This document shows, in pieces, positions 10,225 through 22,200 of a DNA stretch of 64,000 bases. Below the pieces are notes generated by a model. That model was given only the letters and a program-made list of their open reading frames with translations. It was not told the DNA's origin and did not search any database. Numbering within the stretch: position 1 is the stretch's first letter; each line of letters begins with the position of its first letter. The stretch is from Centroscyllium fabricii. Taxonomy: Eukaryota. Both the position numbers and the translations under genes were made by a program. The stretch is from NCBI GenBank assembly GCA_051313645.2, contig JBNRSN020000025.1:86428001-86492000 (forward strand). The letters run 5' to 3'.

Positions 10225-11270
10225 CGACAACAACAACAACTTGCATTTATATAGCGCCTTTAACATAGTAAAACGTCCCAAGGCGCTTCACAGGTGTATT
10301 ATAAGACGAAATAATTTGACACCGAGCGACATGAGAAATTAGGGCAGGTGACCAAAAGCTTGGTCAAAGAGATAGGTTTTAAGGAGTGTCTTAAAGGAGG
10401 AAAGAGAGGTAGTGAGGCGGAGAGGTTTAGGCAAGGAATTCGAGAGCTTAGGGCCCAGGCAACAGAAGGCACGGCCACCAATAGTTGAGCGATTATAATC
10501 AGGGATGCTCGAGGGTAGAATTAGAGAAGCGCCAATATTTTGGCGGGGGTAGGGGGTGTTGTGGGGCTGAAGGAGATTACAGAGATAGGAAGGGGCGAGG
10601 CCATGGAGGGATTTGAAAACGAGAGAATTTTGAAATCAAGGCGTTGCTTAAGCCAATGTAGGTCAGCGAGCACAGCGATGTTGGGTGAATGGGACTTGAT
10701 GCGAGTTAGCACATAGGCAGCTGAGTTTTTGATCACTGCAAGTTTACGTAGGGTGGAACGTGGGAAGCCAGCCAGGAGTGCGTTGAAATAGTCACCTCTA
10801 GAGGTAAAAAAGGCACGGATGAGGGTTTCAGCAGCGGATGTTTGTGGCAGGGACTGAAAACAATGGCTTCGGTCTTCCCAATATTTTATCGGAGAAAATT
10901 TCTGCTCATCTCGGACAAACAGTCTGACAATTTAGAGACTCTAGAGGGGTCGGGAGAAGTGGTGGTGGGATAGAGCTGGGTGTCGTCGGCGCACGTGTGC
11001 AAACTGATGCTGACTGATGATGTCACCGAGCTGCAACATGTAAATGAGAAATAGGAGGGGCCAGGGATAGACCCTTGGGGGGTCACCAGCGGTAACGATG
11101 CGGGAGCGGGAAGAGAAGCCATTGCAGGTGATTCTCTGGCTACGATTAGATAGACAAGAATGGAACCAAGCGAGTGTAGTCCCACCCAGCTGGATGATGG
11201 TGGAGAGGCGTTGGAGGAGGATGGAGTGGTCAACCGTGTCAAAGGCTGCAGACACGTCAAGAAGGCCGAG
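10225..11270 (-). mobile_element. L2 LINE 3' portion, degenerate
   Basis: SAAFDTVDH and ADDTQLY motifs; 3' end AAAGGCGCTATATAAATGCAAG(TTG)n on the minus strand. Confidence 0.85.
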
Positions 11271-12480
11271 GACTGGGGCTGAACTACACTGTTTGCAACC
11301 TTGGTGTCATATTTGGCCCTGAAATGAGTTTCTGACCACATATCCGAGCCATCACGAAGACCGCCTCTTTCCACCTCCATGACATCGCCCGACTCCGTCT
11401 CTGCCTCAGCTCATCTGCTGCTGAAACTCTTGTCCGTTACCTCGAGACTCGACTATTCCAGTGCTCTCCTGGCCGGCGTCCCACATTCTACCCTCCTTAA
11501 ACTTGAGGTCATCCAAAACCCATGTCCTAACTCGCGCCAAGTCCCATTCACACTTCACCCCCTGTGCTCACTGCCCCGTGTCCTAACTCACACCAAGTCC
11601 CGTTCACCCATCACCCCCTGTGCTCACTGCCCCATGTCCTAACTCGCACCAAGTCCCGGTCACCCATAACCCCCTGTGCTCACTGCCCCGTGTCCTAACT
11701 CGCTCCGAGTCCCGTTCACCCATCACCCTGTGCTCACTGCCCCGTGTCCTAACTCGCTCCGAGTCCCGTTCACCCATCACCCTGTGCTCACTGCCCCGTG
11801 TCCTAACTCGCACCAAGTCCCGTTTACCCATCACCCTGTGCTCACTGCCCCGTGTCCTAACTCGCACCAAGTCCCGTTCACCCATCACCCTGTGCTCACT
11901 GCCCCGTGTCCTAACTCGCACCAAGTCCCGTTCACCCATCACCCTGTGCTCACTGCCCCGTGTCCTAACTCACACCAAGTCCCGTTCACCCATCACCCCC
12001 TGTGCTCACTGCCCCGTGTCCTAACTCACAGAGTCCCGTTCACCCATAACCCCCTGTGCTCACTGCCCCGTGTCCTAACTCGCACCCAGTCCCGTTCACC
12101 CATCACCCCGTGCTCACTGCCCCGTGTCCTAACTCGCACCAAGTCCCGGTCACCCATAACCCCCTGTGCTCACTGCCCCGTGTCCTAACTCGCACCAAGT
12201 CCCGGTCACCCATAACCCCCTGTGCTCACTGCCCCGTGTCCTAACTCACACCCAGTCCCATTCACCCATCACCCCCTGTGCTCACTGCCCCGTGTCCTAA
12301 CTCGCTCCGAGTCCCGTTCACCCATCACCCCCTGTGCTCATTGCCCCGTGTCCTAACTCGCACCCAGTCCCGTTCACCCATCACCCCCTGTGCTCAGTGC
12401 CCCATGTCCTAACTCACACCAAGTCCCGTTCACCCATCATGCCTGTGCTTGCTGTCCTACATCGGCTCCTGGTTTAGCAA
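11270..12480 (+). mobile_element. L2 fragment containing an internal tandem amplification
   Basis: VTSRLDYSSALLAG..KLEVIQN, then tandem copies, then the element resumes at CCTACATCGGCTCCTGG. Confidence 0.8.
11520..12445. repeat. 55-57-bp minisatellite, ~16 copies, derived from L2 ORF2 (CCCGTGTCCTAACTCGCACCAAGTCCCGTTCACCCATCACCCTGTGCTCACTG)
   Basis: Direct tandem units; the single-copy homologue is in the minus-strand L2 at ~10665-10720. Confidence 0.92.
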
Positions 12481-12545: not shown

Positions 12546-13395
12546 TTGTCTTCTAGTTTCTCTTCCATCCCCCTTCATGCCCTCTCCAAACTCCTCTTGT
12601 CTATGAGACCCCCCTCCTGCTCTCACAATCCTTTTCCCACTAAAGTGCTAACTACCCAACCTCCCTTCACGGTTCCCCATGCTAGCTGCCATTGTAAATG
12701 GTTCCCTCTCCTCAAGAATTGCTCCTGCCCTTTCAAACCCACAGTCATCCCCCCTCTCTATAACACTCTCGACCCCTCTGGGCTTGCAAATAACCACCCC
12801 ATCAGCCCTGTTTTCCTTTCCGAAATCCTTGAATGCATTGTTACCTCCCAAATCCATGCAAATGTTTCCTGCAACTCCTCCAGCAATGGCTTCTCTGATG
12901 CTGGTATATCCAGCAATGGCTTCTCTGAAGCTGGTATATCCAGCAATGGATTCTCTGAAGCTGGTATATCCAGCAATGGATTCTCTGAAGCTGGTATATC
13001 CAGCAATGGATTCTCTGAAGCTGGTATATCCAGCAATGGCTTGTCTTCCTGCCCCCACAATGTTACCTATGATGTCCACCATGGATCTATCTTTGGCCCC
13101 CTCCTCCTCCTCTTCATCTACATGCTGCTTCTTAATTCCATCATCCACAGACATGGAATCAGCTTCTACATGTACACGAATGAAACCCAGCTCTACCTCA
13201 GCACCACCTCTCTCAACCCCTCTGCTGCCTCTGTCTTCTCAGGGTCTTGTCCACCATCCAGTTCTGGCTGAGCTGCAATTTCCTCTGATTAAACATTGGG
13301 AAGACTAAAGCCGTAGTCTTCAGGCCCCGCCACCAACTCTGTATCCGTGCAATTGATTCCATCCCCCTCCCACTGTCTCCAGCTGAAGCAGACTG
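12546..13395 (+). mobile_element. Degenerate L2 RT fragment
   Basis: LDPSGLANNHPIS, HGSIFGPLLLLFIYML and YTNETQLYLS are decayed RT motifs. Confidence 0.7.
12879..13042. repeat. 30-bp tandem repeat, ~5.4 copies (TCCAGCAATGGATTCTCTGAAGCTGGTATA)
   Basis: Near-perfect direct copies. Confidence 0.95.
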
Positions 13396-14185
13396 CAGCA
13401 TTTTCAGGACCTTGAATTTATTGAACTTATTTATAAATGTTAGAAGTATGTATGAATCTTAACAAATTTAGCGTTTATAAAATATGTATGGCCACTGTAA
13501 TTTAAATGTTGAGGATTGTACCTGTAAATTTTGTACTAATTTAACAATCTGAAATCTTTCTGCATTTATTTTTTTACCACAAACATGTATTTACTTTCCC
13601 CAAATTGAATTTTTTAAGCAATAGATAAAAGACGTTACTCTTCAAAACATCTAATAGTTATTTTCTGCAAGACAGCTGAGCTCATCCCCCTTTCATATCC
13701 CTCAAGGCCCTGTCACACCTAGACGTTTTAGCCAGCCTATGCAAATGAGGCTAAAACGCTGAACTTTTGACACTTTTTTCAATTTTCGGCGTATAGTAGC
13801 GTATTCATAGCGTATTGGACGTATGCAGAACGTATGCATAACGTATTAGTAACGTACACAGAACGTTTCTATAAGTTACAGATAACTTATACCAACGAAT
13901 GCTTAGCGTGTTGTCGGCGTTCACAACTTATGCCCAACGATAGTCTAACTTATGCATTTCGCCGACGATCAAGTTGAGCAAACTCTTGATGTTTGTTGAT
14001 GTTATTGTTTAATAATTTAAATCATAAACAATAATTAACAATAATAAATTCAAACACTTTGAAAAAAGTATAATTAAATAATGTACATGTATATTGAAAA
14101 GTGGATAATTGAAAAAAAGGCTTTAAGATGTTCATTTCAGGAGGAAAGTCTCTTTATTGCCTGAACAATGCAGTAATACAAATAT

Positions 14186-14402
14186 CTAAATCATCCTATC
14201 TTGCCACGGAACTGCGCCAGCTGGGGAGTTAACCCAGTGCTTGAGGAGATTCCTCTGTTTCCTTCCGTCCTTGGAGGCAGTGTTGGGGCCAGTAGCTGTC
14301 TGTGTATCCTCCAACTGATGTCCCTGTCGCCATGCTCCTGGAACAAGGTCGCGGTTCTCATTCTCTGCCTGGTCAAGCTGCTGGTTCTGTAGTCCTGGGT
14401 AC
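14186..14402 (-). CDS. Harbinger transposase, second segment (YPGLQNQQLDQ...HWVNSPAGAVPWQDRMI*); joined product 429 aa
   Basis: In frame after removing 14403-14599; typical Harbinger C-terminal G(A/S)VPWQ motif; AATAAA on the minus strand at 14153-14158. Confidence 0.85.
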
Positions 14403-14599
14403 CTGGAATTTGAATTTGATTTTATTTACTTATAAAGCGCACCTATAATGAAAACATATATTCTAATGCGCTGTACATTAAAAAGTAATATAATGATACA
14501 TGTAAAATTTAAGGTAAATCATATAATGTTTATAAGCATAGGCTAAAAGTTAAATTTCATTGTATAATGTATAATATATGCTATGTAAACATGAATTAC
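14403..14599 (-). other. 197-bp GT-AG intron-like insert resembling a LINE 3' tail
   Basis: GTAATT...TTCCAG boundaries; CCAGGTA direct repeat at both junctions; ends TGTACAGCGCATT...GTGCGCTTTATAAGTAAATAAAATCAAATTCAAATT. Confidence 0.75.
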
Positions 14600-15672
14600 C
14601 TGGTCCTCATGAGGTTGTGCAGGATCAAGCATGCTTTGAGAATGAGCTTGACAGTGGAGGGGTGATGCTGCATGGTACTTAGCAGAACCTGGAATCTGTT
14701 AGCCAGGATGCCGAATGCATTTTCTACTACCCTTCTTGCTCGGCTAAGCCTGTAGTTGAAGATGCGTTGTTCATTCGTCAGACCACGGAGGCTGTATGGC
14801 TTCATCATGGTTGGTCGTAAGGCGAAGGCATCATCACCGATAAAGAAGTAAGGCACGTCCTGGTTGTCGTTGGGAAGAGGCTCAGGGTCAGTGAAACCAA
14901 GGGTACCGTCTTCAGTGCATTCCTTCAGCTCAGAGTCATTGTATATCTGCGCATCTGATGCAGATCCAGTACCGCCGACATCTGCCCAAATGAATTTGTA
15001 GTCAGCATCCACAAGCGCCATCAGAACAATGGAGTCGAATCCTTTGTAGTTGTAGTATTGTGACCCAGTCTTTGGAGGACAGCGGCAGGCCACATGCTTC
15101 CCGTCAAGTGCCCCACATGTATGGGGAAAGTTCCATCGTTGGAAGAACTTGTCAGCTATGGCGCGCCAACCATCAGGAGTACTTGGGCAAACCACCACCT
15201 CATCCACGTATTCGGCAATAATGGCTTGACAGACTTCTCTGACCACTAGGGACTGGGTGTTGTGAGGGACCCTCCATGCGAACTTCATCGAGGCATACTT
15301 GTTTCCAGAGGCAAGGTGACGCAAAGTCAGTGCCAGCTTCATGCCAGGCTCAAGCGGATCCCTGTAGAAGGTGTACTGCTTGGTTATCCTTGGACCCACT
15401 CTGGCTAGCAGCTCATCGAACATCACTGGGGGCATACGCAGGAAGTTGGTGAAGGATGCATGGTCCTCGTTACGGAGTTCCACCATGAGCTGGTCATACA
15501 TGCCAAACTGCCGTCGCCTCACGATCCATGGTCTCACCCAGTTCCTTCTCCTCCGTTCACCTAATCTTCTCTTGGCTCTTTTGGCACGCCTCTGGTACAG
15601 TGTAAAATCGATGAGTGCATGTTGATGTTGGAGGACAGCTAGTAGTAATTCTCGTCTTGCCGGATCCTCCAT
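14600..15672 (-). CDS. Harbinger DDE transposase, first segment
   Basis: FLRM, LALTLRHLASG, GALDGKH (D), NYKG, GDDAF (D), FNYRLSRARRVVENAFGIL (E) and LHN; ends at AG|GTAATT. Confidence 0.93.
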
Positions 15673-16289
15673 CTCTTGGATGACATGGACATCTGCTCAC
15701 CATGGAGTCTGGAACACTGACTGGTTCCTCCTGTGAACCCCATTTTTATATACCAAATTCCCTAAACGCTGCCAATACGCCATTATACGTTAGCTGTAAG
15801 TTAGAAACACGTTCAGTAAGTTCTGTGGTCGTCCGGAAGACGTCAAATACGTCTACATACGTCAATATGCGTTGGAGATACGTTACACAAGTTCAAAGCA
15901 CGTTACTCATAGGTTAGACATAAGTTCCGGGTACGCTAGTCATTATCTCGACGTATTTTGACGTATGACTAACTTACAAGTAGCGTGTGTCAACGATCGC
16001 CTAACGTGCCTACAACGTATGGCCAGCGTATGCGGAACGTATAAATCGTAACATTGATACGTCGTGATTTTTTGTCCATGCACAAAAAATCTCGACTTAC
16101 TCGAAATTCAACGACGTATACAACGTATGTCCAGCGTATGCCAACGTGCTCTTAACGTATGCATAACGTACCCATAACGTATCCGACGTAAACCGCCATT
16201 TTAGCCAAATTTGCATACGCTGGCTAAATCGTCTAGGTGTGACAGGGCCTTCAGTAGTTTTCAAATTAGTATGAAAGAATTCTGCCATT

Positions 16290-16779: not shown

Positions 16780-19213
16780 TCTTCTTCTTCTTCTTCGTGT
16801 CCATATACAAAGCTATTCAGCTTATATAACGTCCAACCAGTGCTTGGTACATTGCTGTCCCTTGATGTTGTAGAGTGCTAGGTCCTTTGCTGTGCAGGGT
16901 CCACCTAACAGAGGACATCGAAGGAGGTGCTCCATGGTCTGGGGTTCTGTGCCACAGTCACATGTGGTTGGGCCACTAAGATAACCCCATCTGCTTAGGG
17001 CTTCCCTGGAACGGCCAACACCTGAGCGGAGTCGGTTCAAGCACTTCCATTTTGCCCAGTTGTTATCTCCTGGTGGGAGGGTTTCGGCAGGGGGGATGAG
17101 CATAGTCGAGCTGTGTGGGTGTTTGGACAGCTTTTCCTTCCACATTTTAAGGCGGGCTTCAGATGGTGTTGTCTCCAGTGGAGCAGTGCTGGTCAGGAAA
17201 CTTCTCCGTGATTTTAGTCGGCTGGGGGCAGGTACATGGCCATGTAGGGGGTGCCTCTCATCTGTGGTTTGCCTGCGCCGCTCTGTCCTGCTGGCTACCG
17301 CTCTTCTGATGTCTGGAGGGGCGATACCTGCCAGGATGTACAGGTCGTTGGTGTTAGTGGGCTTCAGGCACCCAGTGATACATCTGCAGCTCTCGTTAAG
17401 AGCGGGGTCCAGTTTTTTAGCATGGGTGGATCTTTCCCACGCTGGGCTGGCATATTCTGCAGTAGAGAAGCTGAGGGCAAGGGCTGTGGCACGTAGTGTC
17501 TTGGGACATGCACCCCATCTGGTGTTGGCGAGTTTGCGCAGGATGTTGTTGCGGGTGCTCACTTTTGCCTTTGTCTTCATGATGTGGGTTTTGAATGTAA
17601 GGCATCTGTCGAGTGTGACTCCGAGGTAGACAGGGTGCTCAGAGTGTGACAGTGGTATTCCACACCAAGACACATTCAGTTGGCGCTTAGCTTCCTTGTT
17701 TCTCAGGTGAAAAGCGCATACTTGTGTTTTTGCTGGGTTGGCACGTAGATGGTTCTCTTCATAGTAGGTTGTTAATCCTGAGAGGGCATCGTTGAGCGTT
17801 TCCTCAATACTAATGAAGTCTGTTCCTTGGGCGGTGATGCACAGGTCATCTGCATATGCAAAACGACGGGTGACATCATCTCTGGGTTGGTCGTTTGTAT
17901 AGATGTTGTACTGAAGTGGGGCAAGCACGCTGCCTTGTGGGAGGCCATGCTTCTGGTTGCGCCATCTGCTACGTTTTCCGCCTAATTCGACGTAGAATCT
18001 GCGGTTCTGGAGCATGGCTTCCATTAGCTCTGTTAGGTCGGTGTCTTTTGTGATCTCCAGGATCTTACATAGGAGTCGTCTGTGGTTGACGACCTAACAA
18101 GTCCACGAAAACAGCACCGGTAATCTGTCCTCTCTCAAATCCATCCTCAATGTGTTGAGTGAGGTTGACGAGTTGGCTGGTTGTCGATTTGCCTGGACGG
18201 AACCCTGTTTGCTCTGGGATGATCTTCTCGTCTATGGATGGTGCAATCCTGTTCAGTATCAGGCGCTCAAACAGCTTGTATGTGTGACATAGAAGTGAGA
18301 TTGGCCGGAAACTTTTAGGATCAGACGGGTCCTTCCCAGGTTTCAGGAGTGCTAGTACATGTGCCTTGAGCCAGATGTTTGGAAGCTTATGTGTAGCCAT
18401 ACAGTTATTGAATAGGTTGAGGAGCCATACCTTTGTTTGTTCTCCAAAGTACTTGATCTGCTCTGTTGCGATGTTATCCAGACCAACTGCTTTCCCTGGT
18501 TTCAAACTATGTATTCCTGTTTCCAGTTCAGTCATAGTGAAAGGTCTTGTGAAGCCTGGGTTTGCATGGTACGTTTTTCGGTCTAGTTTGGCTTTTTGTT
18601 GTCGTTTCTTAGGGCCTTTTCCATTCAGCAGCAGTTGGTGGGCAACTTGTTCAGCAGTGGTGTTGCAGTGTTCTTTGGTTGTCTTCGGATCTCCTCCGAG
18701 TTTGTGAATGAGAGCCCATGCTTTCTTGCTGTTCTTTGACATGTCCGTTGTCTCTATCAGAGTATTCCAGGTGTTTTGGCGCTCTTGGGAGATACTGATC
18801 ATCAGCTGTTCTCCTGTTGTTATTGTTTCTTCGGAGAAGGGATCAGATTCGAACATGGTGATGTAGTCATTATAAAGTTCAGCATTCTCAGGGGTTAGGC
18901 CAGGGATGTAATTCATCCTACATCCTCGGGGGATTTTCCTTCTAGCTGTTTTCTGAACTGCTTTGATGAACAGGCAGTAATTCTCTGGGAGTGGTTTGAT
19001 GTATCTGGCCTTATGATCCAGTTCTTGTGTGAATTCTTCCCAGTTTGCCTTTTTAAAATTGAAGCGTCTTCTAAATGGGACAGTGGTTGGTACCACTGCA
19101 GCTTGTATCTGGACACCAATGGGGCGGTGTTGCGTTCTTGGTATTACATCCAAAACAAGTTTCTTACTGGAGCCAGCGATGTTATTGCTTGTTAATACGA
19201 GGTCTGGGTTGGA
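16780..19213 (-). mobile_element. Vingi/Ingi-clade non-LTR retrotransposon, 5'-truncated in the endonuclease, one frameshift near 18090
   Basis: NPDL..PRTQHRPI, FRPISLL, GLPQGSVLAP, YADD, YLGVTLDR and C-terminal CDCG..QTMEHLLRC, with no RNase H evident; (GAA)n tail; TSD TCCTGT at 16774-16779 and 19214-19219. Confidence 0.8.
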
Positions 19214-22200
19214 TCCTGTGAAGTGCCTTGATATATTTTATTACGTTAAAGGCGCTATATAAATACAAGTTGTTGTTTGCAGCCTCGCGGTCATACTCCA
19301 TCCTGAGCTGAGCTGAGCTTCCAGCAACTAGGTTGCCGACTTCCAACACCGGTAAAACAGTAACCGGATCCGGTATCGTCACACGGTAAAACAGTAACCA
19401 GACCAGTTATCGACACACGGTAAAACAGTAACCGAACCCGGTATCGTCACACAGTAAAACAGTAACCAGACCAGTTATCGACACACGGTAAAACAGTAAC
19501 CGGACCCGGTATCGATACACGGTAAAACAGTAACCGAACCCAATATCGACACACGGTAAAACAGTAACCAGACCTGGTATCGACACGGTAAAACAGAAAC
19601 GGGTATCGACCCATGGTAAAATAGTAATGGGACTGGGTATCGACACGCGGCAAAACTGTAACCGGACCCGGTATCGACACATGGTAAAACAGTAACCAGA
19701 CCCGGTAGCGACACGCAATAAAACAGTAACTGGACCCGGTATCGACACGCGGTAAAACAGTAACGGGTATCAACACACGGCAAAACAATAACCGGACCCG
19801 TATCGACTCACGGTAAAACAGTAACCAGACCCGGTATCGACACGCGGTAAAACAGTAACCGGACCCAGAATCGACACACGGTAAAACAGTAACCACACCC
19901 GGTATTGACACGCGGTAAAACACTAACCGGACCCGGAATCGACACACAGTAAAACAGCAACCAGACCCGGTATCGACATACGGTAAAACAGTAACCGGAC
20001 CGGATATCCACACACGGTAAAACGGTTCCCGGACCCAGTATCGACACTCGGTAAAACAGTAACCGGACCCGGTATCGACACAGAGTAAAGCAGTAACCGG
20101 ACCGGTTATTGACACACGGTAAAACAGTAACCGGATCCGGTATCGACACACAGTAAAGCAGTAACCGGACCCGGTATCGACACACGGTAAAACAATAACC
20201 ATACCCAGTATCGCCACACAGTAAAGCAGTAACTGGACCTGGCATCTACACACGGTAAAACGGTTACCGGACCCGGTATTGACATGAGGTGAAACAGTAA
20301 CCAGACCCGGTATCGACACGCGGTAAAACAGTAACCGGACCCAATATCGACACATGGTAAAACAGTAACCAGACCCGGTATCGACACATGGTAAAACAGA
20401 AACCGGTATCGACACATGGTAAAATAGTAATGGGACCGGGTATTGACACGCGGTAAAACAGTAACCGGACCCGGTATCGACACGTGGTAAAACAGTAACG
20501 GGTATCGACACACGGAAAAACAATAACCGGACCTGTATCAACACACGGTGAAACAGGAACCGGAACCGGAACCGACACGCGGTAAAACAGTAACTACATG
20601 ATAAAACAGTAACATGACCTGATATCGACACATGGTAAAACAGTAACCGGACCCGGTATCGACACATAGTAACGACACATGGTAAAACATTAACCAGACC
20701 CGGTATCGATACACGGTAAAACAGTTACCGGACCTGGTATTGATACACAGTAAAACAGTAACCGGACCCGGTATCGATACACGGTAAAACAATAACGGGA
20801 TCCAGTATCGACACACGATAAAACAGTAATTGGACCCGGCATCGACACGCAGGTAAAACAGTAACCCGACCCGGTATCAACACACGGTAAAACAGTAACC
20901 AGACCCGGTATCGACACACAGTAACCAGACCTGGTATCGACACGCGGTAAAATAGTAAATAGACCCGGTATTGACACACGGTAAAACAGTAACCAGACCC
21001 AGCATCCGCACACGGTAAAACAGTAACCGGACCCAGTATCCACACACAGTAAAACAGCTACCGTACCCGGTATCGACACACGGTAAAACGTTTCCCGGAC
21101 CCAGTATCGACACGCGGTAAAACAGTAACTGGACCCGGTATCGACACAGAGTAAAGCAGTAACTGGACCCGGTATCAACACGCGGTAAAACAGTAACCGG
21201 ACCCGGTATCCACACACGGTAAAATAGTAACCAGACCCGGTATCGACACACGGTCAAACAGTAACCAGACCCGGTATCGACACACGGTAAAACAGTAACC
21301 GGACCCAGTATCGACACACGATAAAACAGTAACTGGACCCGGCATCGTCACACAGGTAAAACAGTAACCAGACCCGCTATCCACACACGGTAAAACAGTA
21401 ACCGGACCCGGTATCCACACACGGTAAAATAGTAACCAGACCCGGTATCGACACACGGTAAAACAGTAACCAGACCCAGCATCCGCACACGGTAAAATAG
21501 TAACCGGACCCAGCATCCACACACAGTAAAACAGCTACCGTACCCGGTATCGACACACGGTAAAGCTGTTACCAGACCCGGTATCGTCACACAGTAAAAC
21601 AGTAACCGGACCCGGTATCCACACACGGTAAAATAGTAACCAGACCCGCTATCGACACACAGTAAAACAGTAACCGGACCCGGTATCGACACATGGTAAA
21701 ACAGGAACCAAAGTCATAATCGACACGCGGTAAAACTGTAACCGGACCTGGCAAAAGAGTATCCACACGGTAAAACAGTAACAGGACCTGTATCGACATA
21801 CGGTAAAACAGTAACCGGACCCAGTATCGACACGATAAAACAGTAACTGGACCCGGCGTCCACACACAGGTAAAACAGTAACCAGACCCGCTATCCACAC
21901 ACGGTAAAACAGTAACCGGACCCAGTATCGACACACGATAAAACAGTAACTGGACCCGGCATTGTCACACAGGTAAAACAGTAACCGGACCCGGTATCCA
22001 CACACGGTAAAATAGTAACCAGACCCGCTATCGACACACAGTAAAACAGTAACCAGACCCGGTATCGACACGCGGTAAAACTAACCGGACCCGGTATCGA
22101 CACATGGTAAAACAGGAACCAAAGTCATAATCGACACGTGGTAAAACTGTAACCAGACCTGGCAAAAGAGTATCCACACGGTAAAACAGTAACCGGACCC

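Follow-up and report, generated by a model that had tools for sequence, protein, structure and literature searches.

A Harbinger transposase intron in Centroscyllium fabricii, probably derived from an L2-type retro-insertion

The element and its interrupted transposase gene

The window analyzed here is a stretch of 64,000 nucleotides (64 kb) of the Centroscyllium fabricii genome, and positions refer to it unless stated otherwise. It contains a Harbinger DNA transposon whose transposase gene is interrupted by 197 bp with GT-AG ends (GT at 14599, AG ending at 14403, minus strand; Table 1). The 7-mer CCAGGTA is found at both junctions (14603–14597 and 14406–14400, minus strand). The repeat is exactly 7 bp, with 4 bp to the left of the splice junction and 3 bp to the right, written here as CCAG/GTA with the slash at the junction. 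Removal of the GT-AG interval restores a conserved frame, as in a U2-type spliceosomal intron. The spliced frame has 429 codons between an ATG at 15672 and a stop ending at 14186; the unspliced frame stops after residue 358. The duplicated 7-mer, the restored 429-residue frame and the immediate stop without splicing had been described in a first-pass annotation of this DNA, and all three were borne out. Homologous proteins run uninterrupted through the junction (LHNLMRTR-YPGLQNQ), so the spliced reading is taken to be the ancestral protein. The intron is in phase 2, and its GC content is 22%, compared to 51% and 55% in the coding parts on either side.

Table 1. Features of the Harbinger element and its intron (window positions)
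Feature	Position	Strand	Description
Transposase-only Harbinger DNA transposon	13705..16250	minus	2,546 bp, without a Myb/MADF gene
Harbinger target duplication TGA, 3 bp	upstream copy 16251..16253; other copy 13704-13702	minus	flanking 3-mers
5' terminal inverted repeat	16199..16250	minus	pair I1, 56 nt, 91%
3' terminal inverted repeat	13705..13756	minus	pair I1
Transposase coding exon 1	14600..15672	minus	357 codons plus AG; entire DDE domain, residues 189-353
GT-AG phase-2 intron	14403..14599	minus	197 bp = 190 unique bases + one repeat copy
CCAG/GTA, upstream copy (putative donor source)	14597..14603	minus	sequence
AT-rich 5' part of intron	14478..14596	minus	no notable fold; no match outside family
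Two-arm stem-loop, putatively L2-type	14430..14477	minus	4 bp, 1x1 internal loop, 8 bp
AATAAA, then ca. 3 AAATTC-like units up to second repeat copy	14407..14426	minus	sequence
CCAG/GTA, downstream copy (putative acceptor source), adjoins tail	14400..14406	minus	sequence; foreign exon-like joins in two runs
Transposase coding exon 2	14186..14402	minus	71 codons, C-terminal end GAVPWQDRMI

The stem-loop at the intron's 3' end (14477–14430) has a folding energy of −12.4 kcal/mol (z −2.44 over 78 nt and −1.67 over 61 nt) and is followed by AATAAA at 14426–14421 (minus strand). Both had been noted before, along with an (AAATTC)n-like tail; all are there, the tail amounting to just three or so AAATTC-like units. 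The AT-rich 5' part (14478..14596) may be the 3' UTR of a retroelement. The acceptor has 10 pyrimidines in 20 bases, compared to 12–15 in four Harbinger introns from another site that served as controls, in which the junction can slip by just 2–3 bp. It had been said to lack a polypyrimidine tract, and is better described as pyrimidine-poor than as pyrimidine-free. A cryptic AG at 14444, within the stem-loop, has a better pyrimidine tract, and its use would cause a frameshift; no joint to it is among the joints listed for the sequencing runs examined. An ordinary intron, also of phase 2, is found near residue 101 in another Harbinger lineage (L121–L124, L131, L132, L166, L167); it is 122–583 bp long in the four measured, with normal pyrimidine tracts.

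About four AGGT sites are all that the transposase gene offers. A canonical intron at an exonic site like this one would show the 7-mer by chance with odds of ca. 10%, as estimated from splice-site frequencies. Because it is mostly splice consensus and expected about one time in ten, the 7-mer alone is weak evidence.

The host element is a solo-ORF derivative of PIF/Harbinger. The Pfam domain DDE_Tnp_4 is found in the transposase with an E-value of 1.7e-29, 40 full-length copies at 97–100% identity were returned by the first genome search, and 24 of 30 Harbinger copies have a matching TNA 3-bp target duplication. The Myb/MADF gene missing from the 2.55-kb element is represented by MADF genes on sister elements with the same ends (MADF-only elements L202, L210–L212 and L215). 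The family is split between elements with the transposase alone and elements with MADF alone; both kinds have the same ends and are young, and there are miniatures besides. Among 20 stretches retrieved, none was a canonical two-gene element. The miniatures are about 600 bp long (L203–L209 and others), one element is composite (L200), and there are 2,387 exact matches to the ends of the family in the genome. An AlphaFold model of the family had a mean pLDDT of 37.6 and was discarded.

Several other repeats are present in the window. A decayed element with a reverse transcriptase (RT) fragment and an intact tail (10229 to about 11450, minus strand) is L2-like, judging from motifs of the clade; a second short L2-like tail fragment lies at 19206–19280 (plus strand), and both served as comparators. 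An RT-bearing LINE at about 16780–19237 (minus strand), with a frameshift near 18065–18093 and a (GAA)n tail, is presumably RTE-like, judging from its features. Tandem repeats include a 43-kb satellite (19346–62351; 1,277 copies of ca. 34-bp units) and arrays of 56-bp units (11519–12439) and 30-bp units (12879–13046).

Splicing and fixation of the intron

Eight of 24 listed sequencing runs were examined, as contigs, with their RNA status being a program's guess. A joint from 14399 to 14597, with GT-AG ends and spanning 197 bases, was found in contigs of all four probable RNA runs (X15–X18, from four organisms and three studies). These contigs skip exactly 14400–14596, which is equal to GT-AG removal. 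The first-pass annotation had proposed RNA reads across this junction as a check, and the exact skip bears on it at the level of contigs from runs that are probably RNA. The short sides of the joint in X15 and X16 are 23 and 25 letters. The joined contigs of X17 and X18 are ca. 90% identical to the element and may be from intron-less relatives. No near-identical joined form was found in the four DNA-like runs (two of them marked '?'). One run, X10, has an intron-bearing contig (11 differences in 426 bases) and a separate joined contig of 89% identity (23 differences in 205 bases).

Depths of the skipped contigs were 32, 36, 8 and 17, versus ca. 38, 37–53, 3 and 47 for intron-covering ones, so that in X15, X16 and X18 the intron-retaining contigs are as deep as the skipped ones. 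Taken together, the 197-base stretch appears to be spliced as an intron, and splicing is probably partial, since the acceptor is weak and retained and skipped forms are about equally deep. On the protein side, the 86% identity of exon 2 to the shrimp-type lineage would argue for splicing over a long period.

In X17 and X18 the acceptor (14402) has a join to unrelated, exon-like sequence, and host transcripts may receive exon 2 and a poly(A) site from copies of the element. Protein P0276, a fish gene model, likewise has foreign sequence joined to exon 2 at the acceptor. Two further rearrangements belong to related families: internal deletion derivatives in X15 and X16, with 8 bases standing in for 662 between 14654 and 15317, and, within the intron, a skip of 91 bases in run X1 (14430–14522).

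The intron was present in all 50 gene copies examined, with GT-AG kept in 49 and an open spliced frame in 44. Of these copies, the first 30 came from a ranking by similarity to the window copy and the remaining 20 were located via the stem-loop, a sample that could not reveal empty copies; pattern counts over the genome could. The genome contains 1,058 exact donor junctions and the stem-loop in at least 1,836 places, and the empty junction occurs nowhere in it, at up to one mismatch or by a degenerate pattern. The alternative once allowed for, an insert confined to this one copy, is thereby refuted. Eight of the 50 copies, forming one subfamily, have a 14-bp deletion in the intron's AT-rich 5' part. 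In a further subfamily the differences amount to 3–4% in the intron and 3–5% in the exons, and the differences between subfamilies in exon 1 look near neutral (9 synonymous to 15 replacement codons). All copies of the intron that were examined are at one site in one family; introners, by definition, are the same intron at many unrelated gene sites. No other intron was found at this site in Harbinger relatives of this genome, where the single match (L135) is a distant, intron-less Harbinger. In one copy (L222; C1044, about 193.127–193.131 Mb), the start of the intron has received an insertion of a 3.5-kb host LINE whose ORF end is open. The first bases of the intron are duplicated over 8 bp, and the LINE tail abuts the second duplicate copy, just as the tail of the intron itself adjoins the second CCAGGTA.

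Relatives of the element and origin of the intron

Near relatives are annotated in shrimp and hagfish, XP_068231978.1 and XP_068235815.1 of Palaemon and models of Myxine among them, with amino acid identities of 89–91% and 93–97% in exon 1, and of 86–94% to both sets of models in exon 2 (86% for the shrimp type). Such near relatives in these animals suggest horizontal transfer.

The intron is absent in L055–L060 and in every locus reaching the site. In 83 loci, 68 junctions are uninterrupted, 11 of these with AGG/T, and none of 80 metagenome locus layouts is split at this residue. The metagenome scan ordered loci by their score against a query of full length, a ranking in which intron-less loci have an advantage among distant relatives. 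Those DNA-backed relatives that are nearest, namely L059, P0150 and the joined contig of X10, all lack the intron. L059 has 87–89% DNA identity, contains TCAG/GTAC once, and extends upstream of the TATA box into an unrelated flank; on the tree it is sister to P0010 (support 95/96). It differs from the window element at 33 of 140 fourfold sites, a shallow divergence, and a tail is therefore expected to be still recognizable. No relative of the transposase was found in viral contigs. Prokaryotic collections contain four loci (L166–L169) without this intron. These are animal-type Harbingers in contigs of bacterial MAGs, two of them with spliceosomal introns, and are probably host contamination.

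A search with exon 2 alone found P0271, which begins with MNSNSR and continues with exon 2 at 97–99% identity to the shrimp models. In the same frame the end of the window intron reads SNSNSR, and this match suggests that the state with the tail at the acceptor predates the split from the shrimp-type lineage. Judging from these sequences, the birth of the intron would be neither local nor very recent, and older than that split.

The likeness of the intron's 3' end to an L2-type tail was evaluated with a profile of two stem arms, built from 12 independent tails from this genome and from metagenome flanks. The intron scores 25.9 bits with 12 of 12 pairs kept, inside the leave-one-out range of 19–45, and none of 1,500 shuffles or 278 AT-rich natural tiles scored as high. 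The training tails were picked with motifs taken as typical of such tails or modelled on the intron, which makes this test partly circular, and of the 12 just one, situated 3' of RT fragments in this window, is linked to an RT gene. That tail (10229–10303) has the same plan as the intron – a 4-bp stem, a 1x1 loop, an 8-bp stem and a tail of short units – and matches 21 of the 29 arm bases of the intron stem. Covariance models gave less. A sequence-only model did not match the intron with default filters, and otherwise matched one arm weakly (E 0.009 in 2.5 kb). A structure model gave 11.5 bits (E 4.1 in 40 kb), the top match outside the training set and covering the whole stem. RNAalifold returned no consensus pair across the 12 training tails, covariation among them was no better than in shuffles, and the one Rfam match (E 4.4) was at chance level.

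No free parent of the insert was found. All 20 sampled extra matches to the stem-loop were this Harbinger, as were those of 4 of 4 tail variants, 2 of 2 variants of the 5' end, and the first 100 of 1,572 loose tail matches. A parent LINE or SINE was not found in this genome, viral contigs or prokaryotic genome contigs. The L2-like 3' end proposed in the first pass therefore stands in so far as the profile match exceeds chance and the tail units adjoin the 7-bp repeat; it is weakened by the covariance models and the missing parent.

We consider it probable that this is a spliced intron that arose from a 5'-truncated L2-type retro-insertion, with both splice sites supplied by the duplicated target, and that it then spread with the transposon. 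The retroelement would have inserted at a CCAG/GTA site in the transposase, and target-primed reverse transcription would have set ca. 190 bases, made up of 3' UTR, stem-loop and tail, in place with a copy of the target on each side. Of these two copies, the upstream one would be read as an AG/GT donor and the downstream one as a CAG/ acceptor, and splicing would restore the original frame base for base. A single event is envisaged, in an ancestor common to the shrimp-type and hagfish-type elements. The element would then have reached several lineages of aquatic animals, probably by horizontal transfer, and have multiplied in this genome to some 2,000 copies, with MADF provided in trans. The earlier idea of a retro-insertion rescued as an intron is thus favoured by the spliced-like contigs and intron-less relatives, and tempered by the missing parent and by other lineages that stop at the same place.

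Ten of 225 homologous proteins end exactly at this residue, compared to 21 ends over the next 59 positions. Two of the ten are in the window lineage and eight in four other lineages (ca. 65–81% identity). A phase-2 intron beginning GTAA or GTGA yields a stop at this point, and these protein ends indicate that introns probably stand at the site in other lineages as well. The first pass had named a conserved intron in distant Harbingers, with no homology to LINEs, as an argument against its reading; four lineages do stop there, as seen in protein sequences. The label "continuous on DNA" for ENA proteins was judged solely from the size of their contigs. On a tree of 52 rows, stopping at the site requires four to five changes. 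All nine stop-at-site rows as a single clade were rejected (p 0.007), and the nearer six or seven as one clade with the window element were not (p 0.19 and 0.09). Recurrence of the stop means that either the site gains introns repeatedly or an old intron has often been lost. Repeated gain is what the duplication route predicts, since the gene has so few AGGT sites. It may be, as a tentative extension, that one post-catalytic AG/GT site of aquatic Harbinger transposases gained introns two to five times, and that the newborn intron with the L2 tail, carried by its host transposon, crossed between crustaceans, hagfish, bony fish and this genome.

Loss of an old intron is the core of the best surviving alternative, in which a 70-base L2-type tail was inserted before the acceptor of an older intron without a duplication, relatives lost the intron through recombination with cDNA, and the 7-mer is splice consensus plus one lucky base. 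The eight proteins in four other lineages fit this history, one gain and about five losses cost about as much as four to five gains, and the nearer stop-at-site rows may form one clade. P0273, in which exon 2 stands behind an unrelated AT-coded start, and a T-rich tract ahead of the stem-loop also agree with it. From the literature, intron loss prevails in CACTA transposases (PMC4158355) and 20% of ZfL2-2 insertions have no duplication (PMC2666801). Against it are the rejection of the nine rows as one clade, the three intron-less nearest relatives with L059 as sister to P0010, and the lack of any internal copy of the repeat in the intron; the introns of the other lineages, moreover, are read from stops, and a Tyr codon can mutate to a stop. 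We regard an older intron as unlikely, and the retro-insertion as probable, because under the former the tail must have come down no more than one base from the acceptor and without a duplication, and the 10% chance match must be accepted as well.

A new intron could also come from a double-strand break that was repaired with AT-rich filler, or the intron could be an ordinary one, the L2-like hairpin being in either case a matter of chance. In Daphnia pulex, 33 new introns have border repeats of 4–12 bp that are attributed to staggered breaks (PMC4202315), and here no parent was found and the covariance scores were not significant genome-wide. The two arms, their spacing and pairing, the AATAAA and the short-unit tail co-occur in the right order and up to the repeat, and 21 of 29 arm bases are shared with the L2-like tail of the window, which makes this origin improbable.

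That the insertion inactivates the gene and is not usefully spliced, with the family being a passenger of another transposase or using the 358-residue protein, could explain the deep intron-retaining contigs, an exon 1 containing the entire DDE domain and the near-neutral differences in exon 1, and is very improbable given the exact GT-AG skip in four of four runs, an exon 2 that is still open and 86% identical to that of the insert-sharing shrimp-type lineage, and a genome with no close intron-less relative to provide the enzyme.

Comparison with known systems

The origins of animal introns are mostly inferred, as donors decay before being seen, and the birth of an intron from a target duplication is rarely caught. 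In this case an empty site, a filled site, a retroelement-type tail, apparent splicing and an unchanged protein are visible together. The host is a multi-copy transposon in distant animals, so comparisons of this one young intron between spliceosomes are possible, and its weak acceptor would throttle the output of transposase. If the reading with repeated gain and transfer is true, one intron birth is represented by filled and empty alleles that form a natural series. Mechanisms of this class have been described before, from introners and from Doc in Drosophila, which limits the surprise. The literature searched, with Repbase, most subscription papers and supplements lying outside it, contains no report of this intron or of an intron with an L2 tail in a transposase. 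Dataset S2 of PMC12130899 catalogues non-LTR introners and may contain similar cases. Five further sources have, in their available parts, little bearing on this intron (PMC11282704, PMC9179366, PMC4758252, 10.1101/2022.06.16.496473, 10.1101/656579).

The split of transposase and MADF between elements with the same ends resembles two known systems. In Harbinger-Snek of sea kraits the two genes are on separate elements with shared ends, and horizontal transfer among aquatic animals has been described (PMC8437027). Harbinger-1M_cIno of C. inopinata is a solo-ORF element with the same division (PMC13668399). The available parts of these two descriptions mention no such intron in the transposase.

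Tails of the L2 clade (ZfL2-1, ZfL2-2, UnaL2) consist of a stem-loop and then short tandem units, with short target duplications (PMC4176376, PMC2666801), which are found in 80% of ZfL2-2 insertions (PMC2666801). The intron has a stem-loop and short units as well, a likeness of plan, the comparison itself being with tails of this genome and of metagenome flanks.

New introns of Daphnia pulex are AT-rich, and parallel gains at one site are common there (PMC4202315). The intron described here shares the AT-richness and the border repeat; those of Daphnia, as far as the available text goes, are without the hallmarks of a retroelement.

A close precedent is an intron made by the non-LTR retrotransposon Doc1053, with a target duplication, in GM26034 of Drosophila sechellia; the match to the element is 98.4%, and five residues were added to the protein (PMC3296678). 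In the same study, 26% of conserved Drosophila introns have border repeats of 5 bp or longer. Here too, an insertion with a target duplication would have become an intron in a coding gene. Unlike Doc1053, no parent was found, the duplication would account for both splice sites, no residue of the protein is altered, and it is a transposase gene that hosts the insert.

Introners recruit splice sites from target duplications, in some families both of them (PMC9860276); about 5% of classified introners are non-LTR retrotransposons (PMC12130899), and they are enriched in aquatic organisms (PMC9860276, PMC12130899). Unlike introners, which occupy many gene sites, the Harbinger intron would be one insertion at one site, multiplied by the copying of its host transposon.
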